A DNA stretch of 34,276 nt from Candidatus Aenigmatarchaeota archaeon (GTDB lineage Archaea; Aenigmatarchaeota; Aenigmatarchaeia; JACPZZ01). Below the pieces are notes generated by a model. It was not told the DNA's origin. It searched no databases and was given only the letters and a program-made list of their open reading frames with translations. The translations under genes and the position numbers were made by a program. Below, one piece after another: positions 27 to 31,247 of this stretch; the stretch's first letter is position 1; every line of letters begins with the position of its first letter. The DNA lies in assembly GCA_016177205.1 (NCBI GenBank), contig JACOVS010000023.1, forward strand, positions 1 to 34,276. Direction: 5' to 3'.

Positions 27-48
27 CAGTATACGGTATGTTTCTAGC
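27..48. repeat. Copy of the 22-nt repeat cagtatacgRtatgYttctagc, also present at 12655-12676
   Basis: cggtatgtttctag (34-47) is identical to 12681-12694. The longer 22-mer differs from 12655-12676 by two transitions. The pheT stop codon (cta at 48-50, TAG on the minus strand) overlaps the repeat's 3' end (cta vs ctt at 12676-12678). Confidence 0.6.
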
Positions 49-1670: not shown

Positions 1671-3145
1671 TACACCCTCACCTTCGTCGCTCTCAGCATG
1701 CCCAAATCGTTTTTGAAGTAGAAATTGCGTATGTCGTTCAATCCCGTTATCAGTGCGATCGGCCTTTCCAAGCTTAGGCCCCACGCCAGCACAGGAACGT
1801 CAACACCAAGAGGATTCGTAACCTCGGGCCTGAATATCCCGGCGCCGCCCAGCTCCACCCACTCCTGCTTGTCCTCAAAGTAAACCTCCGGCTCTACGCT
1901 CATTTCCGTGTACGGGAAATACGCCGGGCGGAATCTTATTTTTTCAAACCCCAGCCGCCAGTAAAATTCTTTCAGGTAGCCGAGCAGGTCGCGGAAAGTT
2001 ACGTTCTCGTCAGCGACAATTCCCTCGACCTGCGTGAATTCAGGGAGATGTTTGTAGTCGACAGTTTCGTTGCGAAACGCTCTTCCTATGCAGAAAATTT
2101 TTGCGGGCGGCTTCAGCCCGTACAAGCTTCTGGCAGAAACAGCGGTGGTATGCGTCCTCATCACAGGTTTTTTCGCAATATCCTCGGACCATTTGTACGC
2201 CCACCCAGTCGAACCGGCAGTGCCGGACTCGTGCGCCTTTTTTACCCCGGCCACGAGGGGTTTGTCCGGTAATTCGGATTTAAAGGGTTTTTCCATGTAA
2301 AACGTATCCGCTAACTCCCGTGACGGATGGTCTTGGGGCTGGTACAGCGCATCGAAACACCAGAAGCTTGATTCGACCAAGGGCCCGGACGCCTCCTTGA
2401 ATCCCATATCGAGAAATATGTTTCTTATTTTTTCAGCCCAGACAGTCGTTATGTGCTTCTTTCCGGTTATTAGCCTCCCGGAAGGTTGAGTCACGTCGTA
2501 AGGCCTCAAGCCCTGTTTCCATTGTCCCGATTTTATTATTTCCGGGGTAAGCTTTCCTATATCGGGTCCGAACCCAGTGCGCCGGAACAAACTTGATTCG
2601 GACAACCCCTTGCCAGTTAGCGATATGAATTCTTCCTTAACAATCTTTTCAGAAACCAGCCCCCTGGTTTTGAACTCTTCCATCCTGTCTTTAGGTATTT
2701 CATTACCAATGCGCAGGTCATTTAGAAAATGTTTGTCTTTGTCGACATCTTCCGGATCCGAAGACGTTTCGGCTACACCGTTTACAATTTGTATCCAGCC
2801 TTTTTTCTTGGCCCACATTATTGCTATATCAAGGCCTTTAAGATCCTTTATTTTGACAGGGCCTTTTATTTTGACCTGCCTGTATAGGCTGCTTTCCGGT
2901 AAGCCGCGGGCGGCGTATTTTTTACCTTCTTCTGTTAGGGCGTAAGAACTCTTTTCTTCGGTTGTTATTTTAACCAGTTCTTTGTTACTCAAACGGAGAG
3001 CAGCTTTCCTGACAGAATCTTCGTTTAACCCGGTTTCTCTGGAAATAGTTTCCACGTTGTAGGAGCCCGAGCCGGTTCCCCCGCCCAGCGTGCGAATACA
3101 TTCAAGCAACTTTGTTTCGTGTGGATGATAAATGCCGCCCATCAA
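1670..3145 (-). CDS. pheS: Phenylalanyl-tRNA synthetase alpha subunit
   Basis: 491 aa with N-terminal winged-helix repeats and a class II core (FRNETVDYKHLPEFTQVEG, GAGIFRPEV, LAWGLSLERP). Confidence 0.9.
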   Translation of the reverse strand: MMGGIYHPHETKLLECIRTLGGGTGSGSYNVETISRETGLNEDSVRKAALRLSNKELVKITTEEKSSYALTEEGKKYAARGLPESSLYRQVKIKGPVKIKDLKGLDIAIMWAKKKGWIQIVNGVAETSSDPEDVDKDKHFLNDLRIGNEIPKDRMEEFKTRGLVSEKIVKEEFISLTGKGLSESSLFRRTGFGPDIGKLTPEIIKSGQWKQGLRPYDVTQPSGRLITGKKHITTVWAEKIRNIFLDMGFKEASGPLVESSFWCFDALYQPQDHPSRELADTFYMEKPFKSELPDKPLVAGVKKAHESGTAGSTGWAYKWSEDIAKKPVMRTHTTAVSARSLYGLKPPAKIFCIGRAFRNETVDYKHLPEFTQVEGIVADENVTFRDLLGYLKEFYWRLGFEKIRFRPAYFPYTEMSVEPEVYFEDKQEWVELGGAGIFRPEVTNPLGVDVPVLAWGLSLERPIALITGLNDIRNFYFKNDLGMLRATKVRV

Positions 3146-10855: not shown

Positions 10856-11949
10856 GCCCTTTTGCCGAGCTTCTTCTTAATTTCCCGCGTAAGCTTGTCC
10901 AAAACGTCCCGCGTAACCCTACCCAGATCCCAGTCCACTGAGGTTGCGTAGAAGTTTCCGTCCGAGGCCTTGACCCGCGCCTTCACCTCGTATTTCGCCT
11001 TTTCCCGGCTTTCCTGTTTCCTGTGCTCCTTGAAGTCCATTACAATGGATATTATCTCGGTCAAGTTTTCCATCCTGGGCATCGCTTTTCTCGAAACCGT
11101 TTCCACGATGTATTTTTTGTCTATGTAGTTGCCGGACAGGCCTGTCACAACAAGCTCCGTCGACTGCAACTGAGGGCGCGCCATCAAGCCCAGGATGCAC
11201 TTCGGCGTAATTATCCCCACAGGCTCCTTGCCCCTTACCACTATAACCGAGGACACATTGTTCGTCTTCATCACGCCGATCACGTCATTGAGCCTGTGGT
11301 CGGGATTTACGGTATACACCCTGTCCTGCATCAGCGTCTCTATTTTAACGTCGCCCATTTTGTTTCCGGTCGCGTCCCCCTTGCGCCCTCCTCTCGTCCA
11401 GCTCTTTGTGGGCAGCACGAAATCCAATAAATCTATCGTAGATAGAATGCCCGCGAGCCTTCCCTGGCCGTCGATAACCGGCAGCCTGTTTATTTTGTGG
11501 TTTATTATCTTCCTTCTCGCGTCAACCGCCGACTCTCCGACCTTCGACACGTATTTTATGGGCCGCATGACATCTTCGGCCTTCCGGCCGTTTTCAACCG
11601 TTCCGAGCACATCCATCTCTGAAACTACGCCAACCAGCTTGCCGCGTTCCAAAACAGGCAGGTCTCTCGACCCGGAAAGCATGAATATCCCCACTACCCG
11701 TTCCACGGCATCGTCCTTTTGCAGCGTGGGGGAAACGAACATAAGCTTCGACACCTTTTCGTCAAGCTTAACGGATCTTTCAACCAGCGCCCGCGGGCTT
11801 AACATGCCTACGGGCTTGCCGTCTCTCAGGACGACCAGTTCGTGCACGCGGTTGTTCTTTACAGTGTTAATCGCGTCAGAAACCGTTGAGTCGTAGTCTA
11901 TGGAAACAGGGTCTTCTGTCATAATGTCTTCTGCTTTCATGTTATCCAA
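10852..11949 (-). CDS. Four-CBS-domain protein with a C-terminal HPF/RaiA-like (S30AE-like) domain
   Basis: Four CBS repeats are recognisable in residues 1-260. The C-terminal roughly 100 aa (LVVTGLSGNYIDKKYIVETVSRKA...KYEVKARVKASDGNFYATSVDWDLGRVTRDVLDKLTREIKKKLGK) aligns by eye with bacterial HPF. Confidence 0.7.
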   Translation of the reverse strand: MDNMKAEDIMTEDPVSIDYDSTVSDAINTVKNNRVHELVVLRDGKPVGMLSPRALVERSVKLDEKVSKLMFVSPTLQKDDAVERVVGIFMLSGSRDLPVLERGKLVGVVSEMDVLGTVENGRKAEDVMRPIKYVSKVGESAVDARRKIINHKINRLPVIDGQGRLAGILSTIDLLDFVLPTKSWTRGGRKGDATGNKMGDVKIETLMQDRVYTVNPDHRLNDVIGVMKTNNVSSVIVVRGKEPVGIITPKCILGLMARPQLQSTELVVTGLSGNYIDKKYIVETVSRKAMPRMENLTEIISIVMDFKEHRKQESREKAKYEVKARVKASDGNFYATSVDWDLGRVTRDVLDKLTREIKKKLGKRA

Positions 11950-11955
11950 AACACC

Positions 11956-12561
11956 TTAGGGTTTTATTCTTAATATCTGATAATACGTCACGTCGTTTTC
12001 CTGGTCTACAACGGCCCACAGCATTTTCGCACGTATGTTATGCGCTAATCTTACTGCGCGTGACAATTCCGGAAATGAGCAGGTGTAATCCTCTGCGACA
12101 GCGTGCACTATCCACTTCGTGTGTTCATGCGCCTCTTTGGGCCCGCGCTTGATCTTTACGCCCCGTTCGTAAACGCGGAAATGGCACCCGAATTTGTAGC
12201 CTGTTTTTATGGTCAGCCCGCGCTCGCGCAAGTCCTTGTAAACGACATAGGTGGTGTGTATCTCCCTGTCTGTTTCGTTCGCAGTTTTCAGCAGGTCCTC
12301 AAATCCGATTTTCTTGTCCCTGCCCGTAACCACAAGTTTTCCCTTGTCAACAAGGTACAGAGCCTCGACAAATGACAGTTCAAGCCGGTTCTCCGCAAAT
12401 TTTCCGTAGCCGCGCTCGAAAAATTCGTTTAGCAGTGGGCCGGAAAAAACAAGGACGCGGTTTTCCACAAGTTCGCCTTTCAGCGGCTCGTTTTTTCCCA
12501 ACTCTGCGAAGCCCTTATCCTCGGCATAATTGTTCTCTTCCATTTCTTTGTCCTTTGCCAT
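11956..12561 (-). CDS. endA: tRNA-splicing endonuclease, single-unit (alpha-like) form
   Basis: YKDLRERGLTIKTGYKFGCHFRVYERG...HTKWIVHAV...RLAHNIRAKMLWAVVD matches the EndA catalytic domain. The start is taken at MAKDKEME (ATG at 12561). The ORF-track extension to 12627 runs into the repeat array. Confidence 0.8.
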   Translation of the reverse strand: MAKDKEMEENNYAEDKGFAELGKNEPLKGELVENRVLVFSGPLLNEFFERGYGKFAENRLELSFVEALYLVDKGKLVVTGRDKKIGFEDLLKTANETDREIHTTYVVYKDLRERGLTIKTGYKFGCHFRVYERGVKIKRGPKEAHEHTKWIVHAVAEDYTCSFPELSRAVRLAHNIRAKMLWAVVDQENDVTYYQILRIKP

Positions 12562-12754: not shown

Positions 12755-12761
12755 TCAACAG

Positions 12762-12835
12762 TGGGTTCGGAGGGATTTGAACCCCCAACAGCACGGGCTT
12801 CAGCCGTGTACTCTCCCGGATTGAGCTACGAACCC
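12762..12835 (-). tRNA. tRNA-Phe (GAA), no intron, CCA not encoded
   Basis: Minus-strand sequence GGGTTCG TA GCTC AATCCGGGA GAGT A CACGG CTGAAGC CCGTG CTGTT GGGGG TTCAAAT CCCTC CGAACCC A folds as a canonical 74-nt cloverleaf with anticodon GAA. Confidence 0.9.
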
Positions 12836-20358: not shown

Positions 20359-20961
20359 TTATTTGAACCTAAGCATAATAGTCTTCCTGTTGATGTGTTT
20401 TCCTTCTTTCATGCCGGCCATTGACGAAGATTCTTTGACTTCGGGCTTGAAACGCTTCTTCAAAAAACCGACCAGTTTGCTTCCCTCGGCGAATTTGATC
20501 ACGTAAAGGTCGACACCTTCCTTTTTTTGCTCGACCTTCGAAGTCCCGACCCACTTAGCGTATTCGTAGGGCTTTTCCCAGTTTCCCCTTAGCTGTATCA
20601 TGACTTCGTAATAACCGCCTCGCATGCGGGAACAGTTGTCGCAGGCGTTTTTCCTGGCGGAACCGCGAATTTCCAGTTCTCCGTCAAGGATGTTTTTCTT
20701 GTAGTCGACGGAGTATTTTACGGTGAAGTAGTTGCCGTGGTCTTCCACATCAACGTCAATAAGAAGGCCTATGTGCTTGATGCCGTCCTGAATCGCTTCT
20801 TCGAAACTTTTCCACGCGCCTTTGGAGAACCAGCGTTTGCATATGGGGCACATTATGAGTTTACCCCTAAACTCGGCCAGTGCGTGCGTTTTCGTAAAGC
20901 AGTCCTTGCACACGCCGTCTATTAATTCTCCTTCACGGCCGCATCTTGGACAAAAATCCAT
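20359..20961 (-). CDS. NMD3-family zinc-ribbon protein (short, 200 aa)
   Basis: N-terminal CPRCG...CKDC...CPIC Cys clusters are typical of NMD3, and there is a further CDNC. The start is taken at MDFCPRCG (ATG at 20961). The ORF-track extension to 21048 would cover two hairpins. Confidence 0.65.
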
Positions 20962-21000
20962 AACACACCTTCTTCGGTTGAGCTTTCTTTTTAAGACCAA

Positions 21001-21043
21001 GTAAGCTAATAGCTTACGGGTGCAGTTTTGCTTGTGCAAAACT
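21001..21043 (-). terminator. Two consecutive hairpins immediately after the 606-aa gene stop
   Basis: gtaagct-aat-agcttac (21001-21017, 7 bp) and agttttgc-ttgt-gcaaaact (21024-21043, 8 bp). On the minus strand they are followed by an A/T-rich tract. They mark the end of the pilus gene block. Confidence 0.45.
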
Positions 21044-21051
21044 AGCAAAGG

Positions 21052-22872
21052 TCAATCAAACCTTCTCGAATACCACAGCGTAACAAAGATCTGGTAAGGG
21101 TTTGCCAGGTCGCCGCTTTCAAATACGGTGTACGCCCGTGTTGAACTGCCGCCTAAAGAAGGGTTTTTTACATTAATAAACTCCTTTGGAGCCGACCAAA
21201 TTACCGCCGCGCGGACAAGGTTTTTAAAATCCTCGCCCCCTTGGTTGGCCGACACCCACACAGCCCTGCCCGCTTCCCTTTCGGTGATGCCGTCTTTTAC
21301 TATGACCGAAGCGACCGGGCCGTTGAGGCCGGAGTATTTGTTTTCGCTGCCCACCGCTATCCGCTCAACCCTGTCGTTGTCCGGATACGGGCCGGTCTCG
21401 GAAAAATCAACGAACTTGTACGTTTTGTTAAAGGAAAAATCCATGTTATTTTTTACGTTGAACGTGGTGTTGCGCAAAAATATCCAGTCAACCGCTGAAC
21501 TTTTCCATTTGGGCTCTTCCGAGAATTCGGGCGTCCGCAGGTCTATCGTGTGCGTTCCGACATCAAGCAAAACCGTGAACCCTTCAGGGTTCTCAACCCT
21601 GTTCCACCCCCACAAGCCGGCGAACGAGGCGTCCCGTTGAACGAACGGATCCACCAAAACCTCGGCACCGTTGTCAACGGACACGGTATACACCCTTTCT
21701 TTCTCCTTCGGCGTCGTTCCGCGATACGATCGCAGCCAAACTTCATACCTGTCAGGCCTGTTTACATTTATTGTTATTGTCACTTCGCTGTCCCTGGTAT
21801 CAGTCCACACCGCCTCCCCGTCAGAGCACAGGTCATCGCCTTCGCCTGTGCACAAGCCGTTGGCCGAGGCAAGCGCCCAGCCAGCGCCCGTTTCAGCTTC
21901 GGCCTTTTCGTTATAAGTTTGCGCGTGCACGCCCTTCAGCACCATGGAAAATCCGTTCAGGATAAAATTATCTCCCGCTATAAGCGGCCCCTCGTCCGCG
22001 TCGGCTTCGTTATTGTTGTTCTCGTCCACATAAACCACATAATCGCAATACGCCCCGCCTTCCGGCTTTTCGGAACTGTCTATTATCCAGAATTTTTTCG
22101 CAATTCCCCGCGTTTTAACAAGGCCCTCGTGCGTGCTGTTTGTGCACGATATGGGGCCGTTCAGGGCCGAATCCGACAGCAACGCAGCCGTGTTGTTCGA
22201 CGACCTGAAACCGTAAAAATATTTTTTAATGTCATAGCTTGCGTTTTCCGGATGGTCCGGGACTAAAATGCCGTTTGTTGAGGAGCCTGTCACGGAATCC
22301 GTAACCCATTTTAACCCGAAAACGTCCCTTAACACAGAATCGGAGTTTATTTGCGCCTGAGTAACGCCGGACAGGAGAATTACGCCTTTGTAGTTCTTGA
22401 GGAAATCGAGGAGTTTTTGCTTGTCCGCTTCCATGTTCTGGTAGTGCCCGTAGACTATTACGTCCAGCGAATTCCAGTCCTGGACTGCCGCGATGTCCGA
22501 AACCGCGAAATCAATTTTCCTTTCGTTCAAGTCGAAGTCGGCCAGGTGCCGTGCAAGTTCAGCCAACTCCGCAGCAGAACAAAAACATCCCACGAACACG
22601 CTCCTTTTTATGGCGTTCCTCAGGCCGAACTCGTATTCTATGGCGTCGGAAAAGAGTATGTTTCCTATCGAGGATGAAACAAACGAAGAGTTTTGCCAGT
22701 CGTCGCCGAGGACGTTCGCCGTGTAGACAACGTCCCTAGACAACAGCGAGAGGTAATTTCTCGCCCACGGCGTGTCTCTTGTGTAAAGGGAAGAAAACTG
22801 TGACAGCGCGAACAGCACTATCAATACGGATAGTATCATTTCGATGGTGTGTATGTAGCCTTTCTTTACCAT
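21052..22872 (-). CDS. Large (606 aa) prepilin-like surface protein, candidate pilus-associated adhesin
   Basis: N-terminus MVKKG|YIHTIEMILSVLIVLFAL resembles a class III signal peptide. A large predicted extracellular part follows, with a beta-sandwich-like segment (VTITINVNRPDRYEVWLRSYRG...THTIDLRT). There is a 7-nt overlap with the upstream pilin-like gene. Confidence 0.6.
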   Translation of the reverse strand: MVKKGYIHTIEMILSVLIVLFALSQFSSLYTRDTPWARNYLSLLSRDVVYTANVLGDDWQNSSFVSSSIGNILFSDAIEYEFGLRNAIKRSVFVGCFCSAAELAELARHLADFDLNERKIDFAVSDIAAVQDWNSLDVIVYGHYQNMEADKQKLLDFLKNYKGVILLSGVTQAQINSDSVLRDVFGLKWVTDSVTGSSTNGILVPDHPENASYDIKKYFYGFRSSNNTAALLSDSALNGPISCTNSTHEGLVKTRGIAKKFWIIDSSEKPEGGAYCDYVVYVDENNNNEADADEGPLIAGDNFILNGFSMVLKGVHAQTYNEKAEAETGAGWALASANGLCTGEGDDLCSDGEAVWTDTRDSEVTITINVNRPDRYEVWLRSYRGTTPKEKERVYTVSVDNGAEVLVDPFVQRDASFAGLWGWNRVENPEGFTVLLDVGTHTIDLRTPEFSEEPKWKSSAVDWIFLRNTTFNVKNNMDFSFNKTYKFVDFSETGPYPDNDRVERIAVGSENKYSGLNGPVASVIVKDGITEREAGRAVWVSANQGGEDFKNLVRAAVIWSAPKEFINVKNPSLGGSSTRAYTVFESGDLANPYQIFVTLWYSRRFD

Positions 22873-23433: not shown

Positions 23434-24420
23434 TTAAAACCCGAGGAAGCCTATCCTGATAAGTATGCTGAACACGGCAAAGCCCATCCCGGACATTATC
23501 ATTGAATGCTTTAACCCGCTGGTCACAGAGTTCTCGCTTATCTGTCCTGCCACAAGCCCGCCGAAAATGCCCTGCAGCATGAGCATGGAAAAAAACAGCG
23601 CCGTATAATAGCAGCCCACGCCGGCGCCGACGCCAAACATGCTGCAAACGACGCCATAAACAGAGCAGGGCGCGCAGTTAAGATCGCCCGAGCCCAGGCA
23701 AAGCCTGCAGGGGTCGCTGAACCCGAAAGAACCGGACCCGCTCAACGAAAACGACTGTTGCTTGAACATGGGTATGAGTATTTTCGTGAGCGCAAGCACG
23801 ATTATTAGGAACATGAAAAATATCGCGTACATTATCATTACGTGCTGGCCCAACGCGGCTTTCCGCTCCTTTTCCGCGTCCTTTATGACCGCAACGTCCC
23901 TGGACACGGACTCCAGCGTAGATGTTATGTTGCCCCCGGACGCGTAGGCCTCTTTGATAATTCTCATGGAACGCGTCATCAGTTCGGAATTTTTCGTCCT
24001 GCTTATGAAAATTTCAACTATCCGCTCAAACGGGACGCCCCACGTGTAATGGTTTACTATCCTCCTTATTTCCGGCGTTAGTTTGCCGTAATTGGATTCC
24101 GCGGCCGCGCTTAGCGCCTGTATAAGGTTCATCCCGGATCTTTGCGACTCCGACAAGTCTCTCAGGAAACTGGGAAACTGCTCCTCAAGGCTTTTTATCC
24201 AGGCGTGGTCCAGGTACTTCTTGATGAGATACGGGCCGATTATGACAAGGACCGACAGGAATACAAGGTTTCCTATCACCCCTATGTCGGGCGCGCCGGT
24301 TTCCGTTTTAATAAAGAATATCCCGGTCGCCAGGAGCAGCAGCGCGAGCATCATCGGATAAATCGCAATGGAGTTCTCGTCCGTCGCTTTTGGAAGGTAC
24401 TTTTTTAATTCGTTTATCAT
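23434..24420 (-). CDS. Type IV pilus platform protein, half-size TadC/FlaJ-like, with a tetracysteine loop
   Basis: 328 aa from MINELKKY (ATG at 24420, 2 nt after the upstream stop). It has N-terminal TM helices, a cytoplasmic T2SSF-like helical domain (FPSFLRDLSESQRSGMNLIQAL), C-terminal TM helices, and an inserted CRLC-x7-CAPC segment. Confidence 0.7.
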   Translation of the reverse strand: MINELKKYLPKATDENSIAIYPMMLALLLLATGIFFIKTETGAPDIGVIGNLVFLSVLVIIGPYLIKKYLDHAWIKSLEEQFPSFLRDLSESQRSGMNLIQALSAAAESNYGKLTPEIRRIVNHYTWGVPFERIVEIFISRTKNSELMTRSMRIIKEAYASGGNITSTLESVSRDVAVIKDAEKERKAALGQHVMIMYAIFFMFLIIVLALTKILIPMFKQQSFSLSGSGSFGFSDPCRLCLGSGDLNCAPCSVYGVVCSMFGVGAGVGCYYTALFFSMLMLQGIFGGLVAGQISENSVTSGLKHSMIMSGMGFAVFSILIRIGFLGF

Positions 24421-24422
24421 TT

Positions 24423-25298
24423 TTATTCCTCTGTGGGCGAAATGCCCTTTGACAGGAAGATGAACCCGACGGATATCATGGGCAGGAAAATGAATATCAC
24501 GAAAAACTGGATGGATATTACGGACGAGGTTGGCGAAATCGCAGTCATCACGGCGCTCAATATCAAAAAGAAAACCGACCCCACTATTATCAGGGTTATG
24601 TACATCTCTATGTACAGGGACATTTGTTCGGAGTAGTCCTTGATGCTGCGGCGGAAGTCGGCCATGTAGGATTTTGATTTTTCGTGGAGGTATTCGCTCA
24701 TGCTGCCGCCTGTCGTTATTATCGTGGACAGCCCCCACAGCAGATCCTTGAACTTTTCCGACGGCGTCCTCTCCGACGCTTTCTGAAGCGCTGTTTTGAC
24801 GTCCATGCCGAATATTTCCGTGTCCGTGTAAATTCTGGAAACTTCCCGCGACAGTTCTCCGAACTCGGAGAAGTCCGAGATTATCTTGAACATCTTCGTA
24901 GGCGGCGCGCCCGAACTGGCGATGGTCGCCATGTACATCGTTCCGAAAGGCAGCGAGTTTTCGATTTTTCTTTTCCTGCTGCTTGCAGATAGCGAGGGAT
25001 AGTAATACATAGCGGCGAAGGACATGGAACTCAGCACAAGGGATAAAGTGAACGACATGGTGACCGCCAGCGCAACCGAGCTTATCTGGGCGTACCCGAA
25101 CGCCAGCCCGAGAAGCAGGGAAACTGTCGGCCAGCCGACCAGCATTATCATAAACGAAACAAAGACCATGTTGGATACATATTCGTGGATGGAAACGCGC
25201 ATATCGGCCTTTACCAGCCCCTCCCTCAGCGGGTCAAAATGTTTCAGGTAGGGCTTTACAATGCCGCCGAAATACTTGAACGCGATTTTATTCAGCAT
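24423..25298 (-). CDS. Type IV pilus platform protein, half-size TadB/FlaJ-like
   Basis: 291 aa. TM helices flank a cytoplasmic helical domain (LPFGTMYMATIASSGAPPTKMFKIIS...), matching the T2SSF/FlaJ domain organisation. Confidence 0.65.
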   Translation of the reverse strand: MLNKIAFKYFGGIVKPYLKHFDPLREGLVKADMRVSIHEYVSNMVFVSFMIMLVGWPTVSLLLGLAFGYAQISSVALAVTMSFTLSLVLSSMSFAAMYYYPSLSASSRKRKIENSLPFGTMYMATIASSGAPPTKMFKIISDFSEFGELSREVSRIYTDTEIFGMDVKTALQKASERTPSEKFKDLLWGLSTIITTGGSMSEYLHEKSKSYMADFRRSIKDYSEQMSLYIEMYITLIIVGSVFFLILSAVMTAISPTSSVISIQFFVIFIFLPMISVGFIFLSKGISPTEE

Positions 25299-25639: not shown

Positions 25640-28090
25640 CTATTCCACCATGTTCAGGATTTTGTCCGGGTCTGAATTGTACATGCTGAATATTCTGGCA
25701 ACCGAGGAGAAGTCGTTGATCCCGCGCTCCTGCATCCATTCCAAAACCTTTACCCTGTTTGAAATCTCCTGCTGCACCGATTTTTCCGGCATGCTGCCGG
25801 AATAAGCGATTTTTTTTAGCACTGCGCTCCTTCCCACCGCGCGCAAATAACTTTTGGCAGGGTCCCATTTGAACACTGTGTTGCCGACCGGTGCGCCGTT
25901 CTCGTAGCCGGTTATCTCCATTATCGTATCAATCTTTCTTATGTTCTTGCTCTTGAAAGTTGTCGTGTCGCTGAATATCAGTATGTCAAGGTTTTGTATC
26001 AGGTTGCCGGGCAGGCTTATCGGAGGCGTTGTTAACCTGTCTACAAGTTTCGATATGCTGTCCGCGTGTATCGTAGACATGCCCGGATGGCCCGAAGCCA
26101 TCTGCTGGAACAGCACATAGGCCTCCTTGCCTCGCACTTCCCCGACAATGATGTAGTCCGGCCTCTGTCGCAAGCTTTCTTTCAGCAGGTCAAACATGTC
26201 AACCTCCCCGATTTTCCTGTTGCCAACATCTGATATGGCCGTCCGTGCGACCTCGGGCACCCAGTGTGGGTGCGGTAAGCGAAGCTCAGGCGTGTCCTCA
26301 ATGGAGACTATTTTTTTAGTGGGTTTTATGAAAAGCGAGAGCACGTTCAACAGCGTTGTTTTGCCGGAAGCGGTCGAGCCCCCGATAAGTACTGATTTGC
26401 CGTTTTCGACGGCCAGCCATAGGTAAGCAAGTGCGGTGGCGTTTATCGTTCCGTAGTTAAGCATGTCTATCGGCGTCAGCGGCACGTCGGTAAATTTCCT
26501 TATGGTGAAGTTCGAGCCCCGCCTCGCTATGTCTGTTCCGAGCGTTGCCTGTACCCGTGAACCGTCTGTCAGCGTCCCGTCCAAAAGCGGTTCTGCGACT
26601 GATATCGTCTTGCCCGCCCTCTGCGCGAGTTTGACCGCGAAAGTGTCCAAGGATTTCTGGTCCGGGAATTTTATATTCGTTCTGATTGACCCGATCAACG
26701 GGTTTCTATGGAACACGTAAATCGGTATGTTCGTCCCGTCGCAGCTTATGTCCTCTAAGTTGGGGTCGTTCATTAACGGCTCGATCCTCTCCAGCCCCGC
26801 AAAATCCCTCCTGATATAATATTTGAGGACATCAATTCTTTTTTGGCCCAGCTTTACGCCCATTAACGAGAAAACGTCGTCGGTTTGGCGCATCAGGTAG
26901 CTGACGGCCTCTGCCTTGCGGAGCTTTCTCAGATCCATGTTTAGCCGCTCTTCAAGCAGCTCCTTGCTTTTTGAAAGTATCCGCTTCTCCTCGGGCGTAA
27001 GCGCGGGTTCAAAAACATTGTAAAGCAGGCCGTTTTCCTGCTGATCCCACCTTATGTTTGTGTAAGAATAGACCATCTCGCCCTTTGCGGGAACGCGCGG
27101 TATAAGAGGGTAAACCACATTCACGTTCATTATGTTTTCCGCTTCTTCCGTGTCAATCGGTGGCGGTTTTGCCTTGTCCGGGATTTCTATTCCGTCGGCA
27201 GCGCTTTTCGGTATTATTATGGACCTGCTCTCAACGGCAAATATCGGCCTCAGCTGGTCCGTTGTTTGTTGCGGCTGTGGTTGCGGTTGTGTCATTTGCA
27301 TGACAGGGGCCTGCGGATAGACAGGAAAATAAACGGCCTTGAAACCCCTTGCGTACTTCTCGAAGACTTTGTTCATGTCCACTCTGGGCTGCGGCAACCC
27401 CACTTTAACGCCTTCGGCCCTGTAGCTTTTTATTTTTTCCTGTGTTTTTATCAGTTGTTGCTCGTAGTCCGACATCATTTTTTTAAAGGTCGGCTCATCG
27501 ACTTCTCTCTTGTAGTATTTTTTTTCGATCTCGTCCTTCGCTTTTACCAGGCTGTCCCTTTCAATCTCCGCCTCCCTTAACCTGTCTCCGGCGCCTACAG
27601 CGCCGCTCTCTATTCTGTTCTCGATGCTCGAAAGGCTTTGCCTTATTTCGTCTATGTCATTTAACCTTCCGAAATCCGGCATCGACCTTAACGAGGCCAT
27701 TTCATTGCGCAGCGAGAGGACATCTTCGGCCCCCAGCCTGGCCTGCGTGTTGTCCTCCAGCCTCATGATTCGCTTGTAAATATCCTCGATCGATGCCTCG
27801 GAAACCCCGTATTTCTCCGCAGTCTTTTTCAGGTTGTGCGGGCTTTTCACAAGGTCCTCGATAGGGTTTTTATTAACCTCTTCCCTGTAGGCCGATGCGC
27901 CCAAAAGTTTTCTTACAACAAGTCTTACCTTTGTTTTGGAAACAATCTGCGGCTTGTCATTATTTTCGGCAACGGCTTTCAACGCCACCGCGACAGCTTT
28001 CGATATGTCGGGTTTTTTTACCTCCGCGGCGTCCGAAACCAAGGGTTTTTTCAGGGCGGCTTTCCGCATCAAGGAGTTCAGCTTTATCAT
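25640..28090 (-). CDS. FlaI/TadA/VirB11-family secretion ATPase with a long N-terminal extension (816 aa)
   Basis: Walker A GGSTASGKTTLLN, Walker B/Asp box DYIIVGEVRGKEA, His box GHPGMSTIHA, and a FlaI-like N-domain (VVYPLIP...YNVFEP). These are preceded by roughly 280 aa of basic, coiled-coil and PQ-rich sequence. Confidence 0.85.
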   Translation of the reverse strand: MIKLNSLMRKAALKKPLVSDAAEVKKPDISKAVAVALKAVAENNDKPQIVSKTKVRLVVRKLLGASAYREEVNKNPIEDLVKSPHNLKKTAEKYGVSEASIEDIYKRIMRLEDNTQARLGAEDVLSLRNEMASLRSMPDFGRLNDIDEIRQSLSSIENRIESGAVGAGDRLREAEIERDSLVKAKDEIEKKYYKREVDEPTFKKMMSDYEQQLIKTQEKIKSYRAEGVKVGLPQPRVDMNKVFEKYARGFKAVYFPVYPQAPVMQMTQPQPQPQQTTDQLRPIFAVESRSIIIPKSAADGIEIPDKAKPPPIDTEEAENIMNVNVVYPLIPRVPAKGEMVYSYTNIRWDQQENGLLYNVFEPALTPEEKRILSKSKELLEERLNMDLRKLRKAEAVSYLMRQTDDVFSLMGVKLGQKRIDVLKYYIRRDFAGLERIEPLMNDPNLEDISCDGTNIPIYVFHRNPLIGSIRTNIKFPDQKSLDTFAVKLAQRAGKTISVAEPLLDGTLTDGSRVQATLGTDIARRGSNFTIRKFTDVPLTPIDMLNYGTINATALAYLWLAVENGKSVLIGGSTASGKTTLLNVLSLFIKPTKKIVSIEDTPELRLPHPHWVPEVARTAISDVGNRKIGEVDMFDLLKESLRQRPDYIIVGEVRGKEAYVLFQQMASGHPGMSTIHADSISKLVDRLTTPPISLPGNLIQNLDILIFSDTTTFKSKNIRKIDTIMEITGYENGAPVGNTVFKWDPAKSYLRAVGRSAVLKKIAYSGSMPEKSVQQEISNRVKVLEWMQERGINDFSSVARIFSMYNSDPDKILNMVE

Positions 28091-28140: not shown

Positions 28141-28587
28141 TCACCTCTGCAAAACGACCTGTTTTGTGGAGTTGTAAAAAGTTATTTTTAACGGGGACTG
28201 CGTGCTTAATTCCGAGCCGCCCAAAAAGACAGCGGTCCGGTTGATGTTATACACGCCTAGGGACGCCCGGTACGCATCCGTGTGGGTCGCGTTTACGTGG
28301 ACGCCGTTGTCGTTTAAACTCAACCGGTAGGCCTTATTCCCGACAACGCGCGGTACCGGAAGTTTCAGGGTCGCGTTATGGAAATATCTGCCTTGGCCGT
28401 ACACTTCGACCAGGTTTGCCGCGACAGCCAGGCCCACCTCCTGGAAGCTGTCGTGGGTCGAAACCAGATCCACCCTGTCCCCAAGAAGGCTGAAAATGGA
28501 AAATACGCTTGTAAGGATTATCAGGCCTACCCCGAACAGCACGACCTGCTCAATGATCTGGTATTGTCCGCGCAGGTTTTTGGTCAT
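28141..28587 (-). CDS. Prepilin-like protein (148 aa)
   Basis: MTKNLRG|QYQIIEQVVLFGVGLIILTSVF class III signal-like N-terminus followed by a beta-rich body. Confidence 0.6.
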   Translation of the reverse strand: MTKNLRGQYQIIEQVVLFGVGLIILTSVFSIFSLLGDRVDLVSTHDSFQEVGLAVAANLVEVYGQGRYFHNATLKLPVPRVVGNKAYRLSLNDNGVHVNATHTDAYRASLGVYNINRTAVFLGGSELSTQSPLKITFYNSTKQVVLQR

Positions 28588-28657: not shown

Positions 28658-29302
28658 TCACGCGAAATTGACCTTTATCCTGCTTATCTCCAGGTCCTTG
28701 CCGTTCGCTGCACCGCCTGCAATGACAAACCTGCCGTCGTAACTTATCGAAACCCTGCCAGATGTCACGTTTTGCACCGGACCCGATTCAACGTCTATCC
28801 TGAAGCCTTTGTTCGGCGTATCGACTTCCCTGTACCAGAGCCTGTAAACGGCTGTGTAATCGCCGGCGGTATTTTTCGCCATGCGGACAAGCAAGACACC
28901 CTCCTGCTCCCCGAAACCGGCGTACCCGCCTATGTTGCCTGTGTTGATCCCGACCCACCTGTCAAGGGCGTAAACGTTTTTCGCGGCCGCAGCCGTAAGG
29001 ACAACGCTGTTGTTATACTCATTGGCTGCGGATTGGTCCAGGTAGTATTGCTCATAGTTGAAAACGCTGAAAAGGCCCTTCTGCGAAAGTTCCACGTTTT
29101 CCGTGCAGGATCCGGTGCACGTCTGGGCCATTTCCTTTATCTCGGCGTTTAGAACCTCGAAAAAAGCCCTGGTGCTTTCCGACTCTGCCAGCGAGCTGCG
29201 CTTTTCGGTTAGGGGCGCGCCCCACATGTACGCAGCGCCCACCAAGCTGACAACTACAGCGCCCAGCATGACAAACGTGACAACCTCAGCCTGTCCTTTC
29301 AA
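28658..29302 (-). CDS. Prepilin-like protein (214 aa)
   Basis: MKG|QAEVVTFVMLGAVVVSLVGAAYMW class III signal-like N-terminus followed by a beta-rich body. Confidence 0.6.
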   Translation of the reverse strand: MKGQAEVVTFVMLGAVVVSLVGAAYMWGAPLTEKRSSLAESESTRAFFEVLNAEIKEMAQTCTGSCTENVELSQKGLFSVFNYEQYYLDQSAANEYNNSVVLTAAAAKNVYALDRWVGINTGNIGGYAGFGEQEGVLLVRMAKNTAGDYTAVYRLWYREVDTPNKGFRIDVESGPVQNVTSGRVSISYDGRFVIAGGAANGKDLEISRIKVNFA

Positions 29303-29395
29303 AGAATCACTAAGATAGTATTAGTCTGCAGGTTAAATTAAATACTACCCGCCAAAAAGTTTCCTTTCCCTGAGTTTTCTCTTCCCTTAAGGATG

Positions 29396-29412
29396 CTCTT
29401 TTTCCAAAAGAG
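29396..29412 (-). terminator. 7-bp hairpin 6 nt after the pilin A stop
   Basis: ctctttt-tcc-aaaagag. It is followed, further downstream in the minus direction, by an AT-rich TATA-like tract (29325-29345) ahead of the next gene. This arrangement fits a partial terminator after an abundant major pilin transcript. Confidence 0.35.
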
Positions 29413-29417
29413 AAGGC

Positions 29418-29867
29418 TTATCTGCAAGTTACCTGCGTCTGCGCAATGTTAGTTCGTGTCCCGATTACGAGCGCGTACGTGCCTGCGGCGAACGCGGAGC
29501 CGTTGGCGCAATTGGCCGCGCTTCCTCTTCCGGCGAAGAGCGTGGCTCCGGCGCCCGGGGCTATCCCGGCAGACGGGAAATACTGGTTTATAAAGTTGGT
29601 CGGGGTTGTGCAGTCAAGGCTGTTCACTGTTGCCACGATAAAGTCGGACGGGAGCAAGTTGCTCGTCGCCCCGTTGTTCTGCACCACAACACTCACGTAA
29701 TTGTTGCCCCCGATCTTGTAACATATCGCGCCTCCGGGCGGTATGGAAACGCCTTTCTCGGTCTGCGTCGAAGCGAGGCCGGAAAACCAGGCGTAAGCGA
29801 GCCCTACGATGCCCACGGTTATCAACATCAACATTACCAGCGCTATTACAGGCGTTATCCCCTTCAT
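29418..29867 (-). CDS. Archaeal type IV pilin, paralog A (149 aa), candidate major pilin
   Basis: MKG|ITPVIALVMLMLITVGIVGLAYAWFSG N-terminus is typical of archaeal pilin/flagellin-N-terminal-like proteins. Four Cys, one at the C-terminus (VTCR). Confidence 0.8.
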   Translation of the reverse strand: MKGITPVIALVMLMLITVGIVGLAYAWFSGLASTQTEKGVSIPPGGAICYKIGGNNYVSVVVQNNGATSNLLPSDFIVATVNSLDCTTPTNFINQYFPSAGIAPGAGATLFAGRGSAANCANGSAFAAGTYALVIGTRTNIAQTQVTCR

Positions 29868-30097
29868 TTTCTGTCGCCCCTTTCCGAAGAAATGATCGAG
29901 AACGTTGCCAGTTGTGTTATGCTGGATATTATCACAAGCACTGCCAGCATGACAAGCGCCTTTGTGACATTGTCGCCCTGCGGAAGTATGCTCATTACCC
30001 CGATAAGCAGGTAGCCGCCCACAACAAGCAAAACGCCGATAACGGTTACAAAAACGTTTGTTAATGTCCGTCTCTCGTGCGGCTTTACCATTATCAC
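29864..30097 (-). CDS. Two-TM miniprotein (77 aa) coupled to pilin A
   Basis: Two hydrophobic helices separated by a loop with DNVTK. ATGA stop/start overlap with pilin A. A paralog lies at 30490-30729. Confidence 0.55.
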   Translation of the reverse strand: MIMVKPHERRTLTNVFVTVIGVLLVVGGYLLIGVMSILPQGDNVTKALVMLAVLVIISSITQLATFSIISSERGDRK

Positions 30098-30100
30098 ACC

Positions 30101-30493
30101 TTACTTGCAGAAAGCGGTTGATTCAACAACGCTGGTGCGCGTCCCAACCCGGACTGTGTGAGAACCGGAAGAGCATGTCCCGCCGCAAGTCCAGTCCTTG
30201 ACGATCAATCCGCCAGCGCCCGGGGCAAGGTTAATCGCCTGCTTCGTAGCTTCCGTCCCGTCAACGTGCGCTATGATAACATCCGAATCAAGCAAGTTGC
30301 TCGTCGCCCCGTTGTTTTGTATCAGAATACTGACTTTTCCACCCGCGCAGTACGCGCCTCCGGGCGGTACCGAAATGCCCTTCTCTGTTTGAGTTGTCAG
30401 TAAACCGGAAAACCACGCGTAGGCAATGCCGACCATGCCCACGGTTATCAACATCAACATTACCAGCGCTATTACAGGCGTTATCCCCTTCAT
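30101..30493 (-). CDS. Archaeal type IV pilin, paralog B (130 aa)
   Basis: The N-terminal 45 aa are nearly identical to pilin A, and 62 nt are identical (30435-30496 vs 29809-29870). The C-terminal domain has diverged and carries four Cys. Confidence 0.8.
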   Translation of the reverse strand: MKGITPVIALVMLMLITVGMVGIAYAWFSGLLTTQTEKGISVPPGGAYCAGGKVSILIQNNGATSNLLDSDVIIAHVDGTEATKQAINLAPGAGGLIVKDWTCGGTCSSGSHTVRVGTRTSVVESTAFCK

Positions 30494-30729
30494 TTTTTGT
30501 CACCCTTCAGGCTGTGCCTGATCTTTCCCAGCATCGCCAACGATGCCAGCTGTATCATGCTCGAAACTATGGCCAGCAGCGCAAGCAGCAGTATGCCTTT
30601 TGTCACATTGTCCTGCTGCATCGTGGTCATCAGGACCATCACGAGGTAGCTGGTGATTACCAGGATCGCGGCAATAACAACAACAAAAACGTCGACAAAA
30701 ACATTTTCTTTTAGCGCCGTTTTAGCCAT
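30490..30729 (-). CDS. Two-TM miniprotein (79 aa) coupled to pilin B
   Basis: Same architecture and DNVTK loop motif as 29864-30097, with the same ATGA overlap with its pilin. Confidence 0.55.
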   Translation of the reverse strand: MAKTALKENVFVDVFVVVIAAILVITSYLVMVLMTTMQQDNVTKGILLLALLAIVSSMIQLASLAMLGKIRHSLKGDKK

Positions 30730-30752: not shown

Positions 30753-31247
30753 TTATCTTCTTATTAAAGGCGTGCTCGTTGTAGTACCGATCGTTGGCCT
30801 TGGAGGAACAACGTAGAGCCTTTTCAACCGCTTGTCGATCTCGTCCAGGGAGCCTATGATTGCCTGGTTCGACTCAACGGTTTTTTTGCCATATTCAACC
30901 AGTTGGCCGATCCCCTCGGCTATGGGCCTCATAGTTTCCGAGGAAGTTCCGGAAACCTCTTCCTGCGACGCGGCTTTGAGCAGCGAAACAAACTCGTTCA
31001 GCGTCCCGAGCAATTCGTCTATCTTTGAGGGTATTCTTGAAATTTCGTTCCGCAGGTCAAGGTTCGCCCTGACCAGGTCGTCAACTATTTGCTGGTTCGC
31101 CTTGATCAGTTCTATCATTTCGTCGACAAGCTTGTTTATTTCCTTCGCAGAAGTCCCGCCCTCAATCTGGTCCAGCCGCCTTTCCAATCGCCTGATCGGG
31201 GTCATGGCTATGATTTCATACTCTTCAGAATCGGATGTGCCGGCCAT
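30753..31247 (-). CDS. Soluble coiled-coil protein (164 aa), first gene of the pilus block
   Basis: Heptad-rich sequence (RRLERRLDQIE, LVDEMIELIKANQQIVDDLVRANLDLRNEISRIPSKIDELLGTLNEFVSLLK), no TM helix, and a Pro/Thr-rich C-terminal tail. Confidence 0.5.
   Translation of the reverse strand: MAGTSDSEEYEIIAMTPIRRLERRLDQIEGGTSAKEINKLVDEMIELIKANQQIVDDLVRANLDLRNEISRIPSKIDELLGTLNEFVSLLKAASQEEVSGTSSETMRPIAEGIGQLVEYGKKTVESNQAIIGSLDEIDKRLKRLYVVPPRPTIGTTTSTPLIRR

Follow-up and report, generated by a model that had tools for sequence, protein, structure and literature searches.

A tandemly duplicated miniprotein-pilin unit in a type IV pilus operon of Aenigmarchaeota, with recurrent gene conversion at the miniprotein-pilin junction

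Introduction

DPANN archaea live on other cells, to which they probably attach by means of type IV pili; most genes of their pilus operons are unannotated. In a type IV pilus operon of a Candidatus Aenigmatarchaeota archaeon (GCA_016177205.1, contig JACOVS010000023.1; the window, that is the whole stretch of DNA analyzed, comprises 34,276 nucleotides, nt), two consecutive cassettes each encode a miniprotein with two transmembrane (TM) helices followed by a pilin. The locus raises three questions: are the miniproteins real, how did the two cassettes come to share a stretch of identical sequence, and does each pilin have a miniprotein of its own? An initial annotation of the window had described the cassettes as a tandem duplication and regarded the miniprotein as dedicated to each pilin. 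We propose, with a probability of about 0.55, that the locus represents an old tandem duplication of a unit made up of a hairpin miniprotein of 75-80 amino acids and a major pilin, and that the miniprotein is an accessory membrane factor co-made with major pilins by a mechanism that we infer below.

Results

Tandem duplication of the miniprotein-pilin unit and its age

The features that constitute the two cassettes are the following (coordinates of the window):

30490..30729, minus strand: mini1, a two-TM hairpin miniprotein of 79 amino acids with basic N- and C-termini and a short outside loop (QQDNVTK); open reading frame (ORF)
30101..30493, minus strand: pilin1, an archaeal type IV pilin of 130 amino acids with a class III-type signal (MKG/ITPVIALVML...) and four Cys; ORF, AlphaFold2 model and 8FK7 profile match
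29864..30091, minus strand: mini2, a two-TM hairpin miniprotein of 75 amino acids (77 from GTG 30097), paralogue of mini1; ORF and orthologues
29418..29867, minus strand: pilin2, an archaeal type IV pilin of 149 amino acids, paralogue of pilin1, with four Cys; ORF and 52% identity to pilin1
30435..30496, unstranded: first copy of a 62-nt exact repeat, comprising the last 4 nt before the pilin1 ATG and pilin1 codons 1-19; recent gene-conversion tract
29809..29870, unstranded: second copy of the 62-nt exact repeat, at the 5' end of pilin2

All four ORFs were recovered at these positions, and the tandem duplication of the miniprotein-pilin unit was confirmed. The two pilins are 52% identical (E = 1e-46), and both retain four Cys, as had been reported. 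The two miniproteins had been thought to share only their architecture and a DNVTK loop; they are, however, 39% identical over 74 residues (E = 2e-16) and are therefore clear paralogues. For mini2, the ORF indeed extends to 30097, as required for a protein of 77 amino acids, but a GTG start at this position is unlikely: because the orthologues begin with MIKPHERR.. or MVKPHERK.., ATG 30091 (75 amino acids) is the most likely start.

Orthologous miniproteins are about 72% identical, whereas the two paralogues within a genome share only about 38%; in the C-terminal domains of the pilins, identity is 53-61% between orthologues and 42% between paralogues. Pilin C-terminal domains and miniproteins thus group by paralogue, and because orthologues are more alike than paralogues, the duplication must have preceded the divergence of all clade members sampled, the early-branching L012/L020 among them. 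The duplication is old, and both copies have been kept since.

Reality of the miniprotein genes and extent of the family

The initial annotation had named conservation next to pilins and a coding signature as points on which the miniprotein ORFs would stand or fall, and both were found. mini1 and mini2 each have 13 homologue clusters (66-91% identity), and a six-gene order (coiled-coil protein, mini1, pilin1, mini2, pilin2, 214-residue protein) recurs in every clade genome examined, eight or more in number, so that orthologues of both miniproteins lie beside pilins in every sampled genome of the clade (loci L001, L003, L005, L007, L009, L010, L011, L012 and L014-L020; several identifiers denote one contig fetched twice, e.g., L012 = L020, and outside the clade L013 = L048). 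Among eight genomes, synonymous sites of the miniprotein genes are saturated (pS, the proportion of synonymous differences, about 0.70) at a proportion of non-synonymous differences (pN) of 0.18-0.19; the pN/pS ratios of 0.26 (mini1) and 0.27 (mini2) are the same as those of the pilins. When the two paralogue families are aligned together, eleven columns do not vary at all (F14, L22, V23, Y27, M33, D39, L48, S55, Q59, L60, and A61). Both miniprotein genes are therefore real and under purifying selection.

The AlphaFold2 model of mini1 is a plain helical hairpin (helices H3-35 and H40-77; mean predicted local distance difference test score, pLDDT, 76). Because basic residues occur at both ends and the connecting loop comprises only 4-8 residues, both termini are predicted to be cytoplasmic (positive-inside rule). 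An N-x-T sequon in this loop (DNVTK and variants) is present in every mini2 orthologue seen and in some mini1 orthologues only, and is absent from the distant single-copy family described below.

Searches of Pfam, NCBIfam and PHROGs with the miniproteins yielded only sub-threshold matches to unrelated hydrophobic families. The sequence-profile search of the PDB gave nothing significant (best E = 0.047, unrelated TM proteins), and Foldseek with the predicted hairpin retrieved no pilins (best E = 4.1, C-terminal TM hairpins of ArnC/GtrB, which we treat as noise); a helical hairpin being a weak structural probe, the PDB and Foldseek results are soft negatives. A 28-member miniprotein profile, searched against 1.84 billion representative proteins, retrieved five clusters only, all of 75-80 amino acids, and neither distant relatives outside the family nor fusions of a miniprotein with a pilin. 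The miniproteins thus form one very small, unannotated family that is restricted to Aenigmarchaeota.

Gene conversion at the miniprotein-pilin junction

Nucleotide-level comparison of the two cassettes recovered the 62-nt exact identity (29809-29870 = 30435-30496), which is bounded by a mismatch at each end, and a second, weaker block (29632-29696 versus 30270-30334, 77%) inside the pilin genes; in a repeat search of the whole window (34 kb), the pilin-gene blocks were the only substantial repeats. The initial annotation had attributed the N-terminal identity to either gene conversion or constraint. Comparison among genomes reveals that both act.

Constraint is evident at the protein level, as the first 18 residues from the cleavage-motif KG onward (KGITPVIALVMLMLITVG) hardly vary, whichever paralogue or genome is considered. 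On this ground, the 62-nt identity might be ascribed to purifying selection alone, acting on signal peptide and N-terminal helix, but we regard this as very improbable, because selection on near-invariant amino acids leaves synonymous sites free to differ. Between genomes, the 54-nt 5' segment of the pilin genes shows a mean of 11.5 differences, whereas pilin1 and pilin2 of the same genome differ at 0 (window), 2, 3, 5, 7, 8, 8, and 10 positions; none of 20,000 permutations reached the observed within-genome mean. Codons that specify the same amino acid differ at a frequency of 0.28 within genomes versus 0.55 across genomes. With the same amino acids, the pilin pairs of L001, L003, and L009 differ at 7-10 of the 18 codons and orthologues at about 55%, yet synonymous codon differences number 0/18 in the window, two in L011, three in L005, and five in L010. 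The shared codon choices are genome-specific: both genes use TTA/GTC/TTA in L011 and CTG/GTA/TTG in the window.

The extent of the identity also varies by genome. The longest exact runs measure 62 nt in the window, 59 nt in L005, 49 nt in L011, 38 nt in L014, 29 nt in L010, and 26 nt in L007, and only 12-17 nt in L001, L003, and L009. L012 (positions 1650-3025) has a 138-nt exact run within a tract of about 170 nt that crosses the miniprotein-pilin junction, reaching from the second TM helix of the miniprotein genes to pilin codon 32; because this tract covers the second TM helix and the tail, the two miniproteins of L012 are 67% identical instead of about 38%. A tract that enters the miniprotein gene and tract ends that vary by genome are likewise not accounted for by selection on the pilin N-terminus. 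In most genomes, the tract ends at or before codon 19, the first consistently paralogue-specific position (Met in pilin1, Ile or Val in pilin2).

Other conserved blocks of the pilin genes showed no within-genome excess (QNNGA, p = 0.19; WFSG, p = 0.07) or a slight one (GT[RK]T, p = 0.03; PPGG, p = 0.005). The second block of the window (QNNGATS) was considered as a further conversion tract and rejected for lack of such an excess (p = 0.19).

Within-genome likeness at synonymous sites, lineage-specific tract ends, and independent tracts of 62, 59, 49, 38, and 138 nt together demonstrate recurrent, independent gene conversion centred on the miniprotein-pilin junction. Its effect within each genome is that both pilins keep the same signal peptide and the same core-forming N-terminal helix.

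Distribution of the family and the question of pairing

Using the conserved coiled-coil protein as an anchor, we collected 62 species-level Aenigmarchaeota loci, of which 57 were long enough to judge. The operon core is general across these loci and consists of the coiled-coil protein, one or more pilins, a protein of about 210 amino acids, a protein of about 140 amino acids, the ATPase, and two TadC genes. A hidden Markov model (HMM) built from all members detected the miniprotein family in 19 of these loci; the seven loci of the window clade all have two copies, and twelve other loci have one, usually ahead of one or more pilins. In all family loci but L062, a miniprotein gene directly follows the coiled-coil gene; in L062 (477-725, minus strand), the homologue and the coiled-coil gene are on different strands, the homologue being the upstream one. 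A distant Aenigmarchaeota lineage (L013/L048), from which P0028, one of the five clusters, derives, has one miniprotein and one pilin, and its single-copy family aligns with that of the window clade at an hhalign probability of 95.7% (E = 1e-8). In HMM comparisons, the single-copy miniproteins are nearer to mini1 than to mini2. Ancestrally, a single miniprotein gene thus stood after the coiled-coil gene and ahead of the first pilin gene. When mapped on a neighbour-joining tree of the coiled-coil protein, which is short, the miniprotein family is scattered, suggesting old presence and repeated loss.

The claim that a miniprotein is dedicated to each pilin does not agree with this distribution. 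The family is missing from 38 of the 57 informative operons, two pilins occur without any miniprotein in L021, L034, L061, L064, and L065, orphan pilins outside the operon have none, and L013/L048 has a single pair. In two deep-branching operons, the miniprotein slot is occupied by a small two-TM ORF, one ahead of three pilins in L073 (5420-5635) and one ahead of a single pilin in L074 (3803-4000); neither shows detectable homology to the family (hhalign probability 2.8% for L073), so that these ORFs reflect either extreme divergence or independent recruitment. Furthermore, the pilins are paralogue-specific in their outside C-terminal domain, where the miniprotein offers only its loop of 4-8 residues. 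The miniprotein is an accessory, lineage-specific component and not a one-per-pilin partner; given its distribution across loci, the one-to-one pairing seen in the window arose because the unit was duplicated and does not reflect a general rule.

Identity of the pilins

Both pilins begin with MKG/ITPVIALVMLMLITVG.., a class III-type signal with a short basic leader and, immediately after it, a hydrophobic stretch of some 20 residues or more; this class assignment rests on the motif and not on a model, because the match to TIGR02537 (arch_flag_Nterm) is below the cut-off (13.4 versus 20 bits). The AlphaFold2 model of pilin1 (43 sequences, pLDDT 83.6) consists of an N-terminal helix (H3-34) and a six-stranded, immunoglobulin (Ig)-like beta-sandwich. 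Foldseek with this model retrieved generic Ig-like domains and the Natrinema PilA1 pilus (E = 0.095), and a profile of 43 pilins matched 8FK7_A, the flagellar-like type IV pilus of P. calidifontis (E = 4.5e-5; positions 2-131 versus residues 5-134). Signal motif, predicted fold, the 8FK7 profile match, and linkage to ATPase and TadC genes identify the window pilins as archaeal type IV pilins. Orthology to UpsA was considered and rejected: the scores against the NCBIfam equivalog model NF046073 (28.0 and 31.2 bits) are far below its cut-off of 130 bits and indicate a distant resemblance only.

Two pilin genes of clade genomes lie outside the operon. The pilin in L076 (3469-4399) has an identical N-terminal stretch (MKGITPVIALVMLMLITVG); it follows a pair of genes of 79 and 85 amino acids that resembles RelE/ParE-type toxin-antitoxin systems, and precedes a gene for a secreted protein of 808 amino acids with a weak P_proprotein match. 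In L078 (4001-4411), the N-terminus is near-identical (MKGLTSVIALVMLLLITVG).

Junctions and expression signals

In the window, both miniprotein stops overlap the pilin starts as ATGA, in agreement with the initial annotation. mini1 overlaps pilin1 in 8/8 genomes, and mini2 overlaps pilin2 in 5/8, with a gap of at most 16 nt in the rest; in the single-copy lineages, miniprotein and pilin are separated by 10-70 nt. A GGTG-like motif occurs 7-13 nt upstream of each pilin start, within the last codons of the miniprotein, and also before the mini2 start.

The region that follows pilin2 contains the features summarised here:

29333..29412, minus strand: intergenic region 3' of pilin2 with a putative hairpin, T5 tract, and AT-rich box, as read from the sequence

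The hairpin (CTCTTTT-GGA-AAAAGAG) is located at about 29396-29412 and the T5 tract at 29354-29358, and the AT-rich box (TATTTAATTTAA, about 29333-29344), which is conserved in L001, L009, L010, and L011, lies about 36 nt before the next gene. The hairpin and T5 tract would represent a terminator, and the AT-rich box would be the promoter from which the following gene is transcribed. On this reading, mini1-pilin1-mini2-pilin2 would be a transcription unit of its own and probably a highly expressed one. A scan for bacterial sigma-70 promoters and intrinsic terminators was disregarded, as it is not meaningful for an archaeon.

Genomic context of the operon

The window is archaeal chromosomal DNA. 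It contains genes for both subunits of phenylalanyl-tRNA synthetase (alpha and beta; at the start of the window, 48-3145), tryptophanyl- or tyrosyl-tRNA synthetase, tryptophan synthase, elongation factor EF-1alpha, tRNA splicing endonuclease, topoisomerase VI A and B, a KH-domain protein, and the thermosome. For the proteins of the pilus operon, all close relatives are from metagenome-assembled genomes of Aenigmarchaeota (DPANN). A tRNA-Phe (GAA) gene (12761-12835, minus strand) is located between the EF-1alpha and tRNA splicing endonuclease genes. Both cassettes lie inside the type IV pilus operon on the minus strand: the thermosome gene, the coiled-coil gene, mini1, pilin1, mini2, and pilin2 are followed by genes for two proteins with pilin-like N-termini (214 and 148 amino acids), the T2SSE-type ATPase (816 amino acids), two T2SSF/TadC-like proteins, and two further proteins with pilin-like N-termini (188 and 606 amino acids). 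The T2SSE and the two T2SSF genes lie 1.3-6 kb downstream of the pilins on the same strand, and this order is repeated in related genomes. The remaining genes of the locus are as follows:

30753..31247, minus strand: cytoplasmic coiled-coil protein of 164 amino acids, whose gene opens the pilus locus and lies immediately ahead of mini1
28658..29302, minus strand: pilin-like protein of 214 amino acids (MKGQAEVVTFVMLG...), probable minor pilin; weak DUF7289 match, position kept in all related operons
28141..28587, minus strand: pilin-like protein of 148 amino acids (..RGQYQIIEQVVLFGVG..), probable minor pilin; ORF, position kept in relatives
25640..28090, minus strand: PilB/TadA/FlaI-type secretion ATPase of 816 amino acids with a long N-terminal extension; PF00437 (T2SSE), E = 6e-30
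24423..25298, minus strand: TadC/PilC-like platform protein 1 of 291 amino acids; PF00482 (T2SSF), E = 1.6e-17
23434..24420, minus strand: TadC/PilC-like platform protein 2 of about 328 amino acids from the likely start MINELKK; PF00482, E = 6e-18, orthologues 331-339 amino acids
22866-23432, minus strand: protein of 188 amino acids with a pilin-like N-terminal sequence (MKRKGQFTVEFIIAVV..), probable minor pilin
21052-22872, minus strand: protein of 606 amino acids with a pilin-like N-terminal sequence (MVKKGYIHTIEMILSVL..), probable adhesin

For platform protein 2, the mechanically derived ORF extends further upstream, to 24738. The two proteins encoded at the end of the operon (188 and 606 amino acids) had no match in the family scan; the larger one could be a tip adhesin. 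No prepilin peptidase gene was found among the genes of the window. Directly after the pilus operon, a protein of 229 amino acids is encoded (20359-21048, minus strand), zinc-ribbon-like, with several CxxC pairs and only a weak DnaJ-type match.

The coiled-coil protein is the most conserved gene product of the pilus locus (pN/pS 0.10), with 84-95% identity among seven close clade genomes and 75% to L012, and in 62 Aenigmarchaeota species genomes its gene stands after the thermosome gene and ahead of the pilins. Searches of Pfam, NCBIfam, and PDB gave no match; it may be an equivalent of the coiled-coil regulators of some archaeal type IV pilus loci (arCOG07564; PMC4858521).

The pilus ATPase of the clade (804-816 amino acids) has an N-terminal extension of about 200 amino acids, and the ATPases of other Aenigmarchaeota operons comprise about 570-640 amino acids. 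In L001 (8652-12237) and L007 (8664-12237), the orthologue is split by an intein with a LAGLIDADG endonuclease domain, which the window copy lacks. In L009, the closest relative contig, an IS605 OrfB/TnpB-like gene (11441-12243) follows the ATPase gene, where the TadC genes would be expected.

Discussion

If the miniprotein is an accessory membrane factor that is co-made with major pilins, the following scenario may be envisaged. The four cassette genes would form one transcription unit, and each pilin would be translationally coupled to its miniprotein through the ATGA overlap and the GGTG-like motif, a putative ribosome-binding site; because of this coupling, miniprotein and pilin would be synthesised in step and would enter the membrane next to each other. 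With both ends in the cytoplasm and almost nothing outside the cell, the miniprotein may hold or stabilise the pool of pilin N-terminal helices within the bilayer, or prevent their premature association, and might then hand the helices to the TadC/ATPase machine; it would be non-essential and would stay out of the filament. The signal and helix, matched by conversion, would make both pilins substrates of one peptidase and one machine and allow them to be packed in one filament core. The two pilins, interchangeable in their N-terminal helices but different in their Ig-like domains, would probably form mixed or alternative attachment filaments.

Several observations weigh against this proposal. 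Because the family is lacking in two thirds of the informative operons (38/57), the miniprotein is dispensable, and in these operons the N-terminal helix of the pilins is nearly unchanged; a distinctive helix was sought in the pilins that are preceded by a miniprotein and was not found, nor did any other pilin feature emerge that would call for a miniprotein. The orphan pilin paralogues (L076, L078) carry the same N-terminus without a miniprotein. Contact between miniprotein and pilin is proposed from adjacency and coupling, the generic helical hairpin yields no informative structural match, and the promoter, terminator, and ribosome-binding assignments are readings of nucleotide sequence. In addition, the miniproteins of L012 are themselves being homogenised (67% identity), and two copies might have been retained for reasons of dosage or linkage and not because each miniprotein serves its own pilin.

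A more far-reaching version of the accessory-factor proposal is tentative and, in our view, rather doubtful: the miniproteins might constitute a new class of type IV pilus component, namely stoichiometric intramembrane chaperones that pair with the pilin N-terminal helix and gate its entry into the filament, two pairs then providing chosen or mixed filament surfaces on a shared core. If this were true, an episymbiotic DPANN archaeon could tune its attachment to the host.

Among other explanations, the one that fares best, although we consider it unlikely, is that the miniprotein serves the assembly machine, as a small membrane adaptor to TadC, the ATPase, or the coiled-coil protein, its adjacency to pilins being mere operon order. 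The constant position of the miniprotein gene between the coiled-coil gene and the pilins of a conserved operon would fit such a role, as would its basic cytoplasmic tails, which are on the side of the ATPase and the coiled-coil protein, and the fact that one miniprotein can precede several pilins, its presence not tracking pilin number. However, every operon has the coiled-coil, ATPase, and TadC genes, whether it encodes a miniprotein or not, and single-copy miniproteins also occur together with a short ATPase (about 600 amino acids). Moreover, the duplication copied and kept the miniprotein with a pilin and not with a machine gene, and the miniprotein became translationally coupled to the pilin.

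The miniprotein could also be a structural subunit, whether as a VirB2/TraA/CedA1-type hairpin pilin or as a second filament component, co-polymerising with the type IV pilin. Two hydrophobic helices in about 75 amino acids resemble CedA1/CedA2 and VirB2-type pilins (PMC11868833), and coupling predicts amounts near those of the major pilin. We nevertheless judge this improbable, as neither VirB4/CedB nor VirB6/CedA homologues are present in the window or the related loci, and the miniproteins have neither a signal peptide nor a prepilin-peptidase motif, carry charges on both tails, have a loop of only 4-8 residues, match no solved pilin in sequence or fold, and are missing from most related operons.

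Similarly small is the chance that the small ORFs are translated leaders that bring ribosomes to the pilin start and thereby set expression, the peptide itself having little function. The overlap, the ribosome-binding-like motif in the last codons, and the absence of the family from many related operons are what such leaders would show, but amino acids, length, the two-TM architecture, and polar residues (Y27, S55, Q59, and D39) have been kept while synonymous sites became saturated, and the profile recognises the family across deep Aenigmarchaeota lineages in which a gap of 10-70 nt separates miniprotein and pilin. Least probable of all are holin-like or toxin-like small membrane proteins outside pilus biology, since a resemblance to class II holins in size, two TM helices, ends inside the cell, and a basic C-terminus stands against the lack of a PHROG match for mini1 or mini2, a chromosomal housekeeping neighbourhood without phage or lysis genes, and a pilus-operon position that is conserved across 19 species.

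What is new here is a small protein family without a Pfam or NCBIfam model that is real, under selection, and tied to the major pilin genes of Aenigmarchaeota. If the miniprotein does not bind pilins, the finding amounts to the annotation of a lineage-specific operon; if it binds them in the membrane, the bacterial pilin accessory proteins would have a first counterpart in archaea, very minimal and therefore useful for probing how such factors function. The locus also provides a clear natural case of conversion that keeps two expressed pilins identical in their core-forming helix, even as the domains that they expose diverge.

Comparison with known systems

The pilins and the pilus operon belong to a known kind of system: the build of the window pilins, from the class III-type signal through the long N-terminal helix to the Ig-like beta-sandwich, is shared with the flagellar-like type IV pili of P. 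calidifontis (8FK7; PMC10334743) and with UpsA/UpsB of the Sulfolobales. The miniprotein family is the unannotated, very narrow part of it. We know of no report of a two-TM miniprotein beside pilins of the 8FK7 or UpsA/UpsB type.

Gene conversion between pilin genes is familiar from Neisseria pilE/pilS, where it diversifies the variable C-terminal part from silent copies. Non-reciprocal copying between pilin paralogues of one genome is common to both systems, but in the window both genes are expressed, and copying makes their conserved 5' ends alike without erasing the differences between the variable domains.

The closest archaeal parallel is found in Haloferax volcanii, whose adhesion pilins PilA1-PilA6 have a common N-terminal H-domain; this domain has been proposed to engage another membrane protein for as long as the pilin stays in the membrane (PMC4371748). 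Like the window pilins, they are paralogous major pilins with a near-identical hydrophobic N-terminus and different C-terminal domains; the Haloferax PilA genes are, however, dispersed, lie outside the biosynthesis operon, and have no paired miniproteins. Their genes and those of the window thus share the pattern in the protein and not the arrangement. To our knowledge, gene conversion has not been shown to be the cause of the H-domain identity in Haloferax, whereas it is evident here at the nucleotide level.

CedA1 and CedA2, which belong to archaeal DNA-transfer systems, are, like VirB2/TraA, two-helix membrane proteins, and the Ced system has VirB4- and VirB6-like partners (PMC11868833). 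The miniproteins resemble CedA1/CedA2 in being very small, in having two hydrophobic helices, and in being encoded in a surface-filament or transport locus. Unlike Ced and VirB2, they are found in a type IV pilus operon, show no sequence or structure match, and have no VirB4- or VirB6-like partners in the window or in the flanks of the related loci.

The initial annotation had stated that no dedicated membrane miniprotein coupled to a pilin was known to it. This holds in part: a literature search that included the census of Makarova et al. 2016 (PMC4858521) and a dark-matter review (PMC6393860) revealed no two-TM miniproteins described in archaeal type IV pilus loci, but pilin-linked accessory membrane proteins do have precedent in bacteria, although these are unrelated in sequence and architecture. 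TfpX, TfpY, and TfpZ of Pseudomonas aeruginosa and FimB of Dichelobacter, Neisseria, and Acinetobacter form pilin-accessory cassettes; proteins of the TfpY/FimB type are non-essential, promote assembly, reportedly contact the major and some minor pilins, and were undetected in the fibre (PMC11841053). TfpY-like proteins comprise 235-245 amino acids with three N-terminal TM helices and a periplasmic alpha/beta globular domain, and are encoded downstream of pilA behind an attenuating terminator (PMC11841053). The miniprotein genes share with them that a gene for a small membrane protein lies beside a major pilin gene, is inherited as a cassette, and occurs only with some pilin types; a miniprotein gene lies beside a pilin gene in all 19 species loci but L062. 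In contrast, the miniproteins have 75-80 amino acids and two TM helices, lack a globular domain, are encoded upstream of the pilin and coupled to it, show no sequence or fold similarity to TfpY/FimB, and belong to another domain of life. Because the TfpX/Y/Z/FimB proteins are three-TM proteins of about 240 amino acids with a periplasmic domain, encoded downstream of the pilin, they are an analogy and not members of the family. The miniprotein may nevertheless resemble the TfpY/FimB-type accessory proteins in function, which would make them its closest functional precedent, and by this analogy the miniprotein family is best described as a minimal variant of the pilin-accessory theme.

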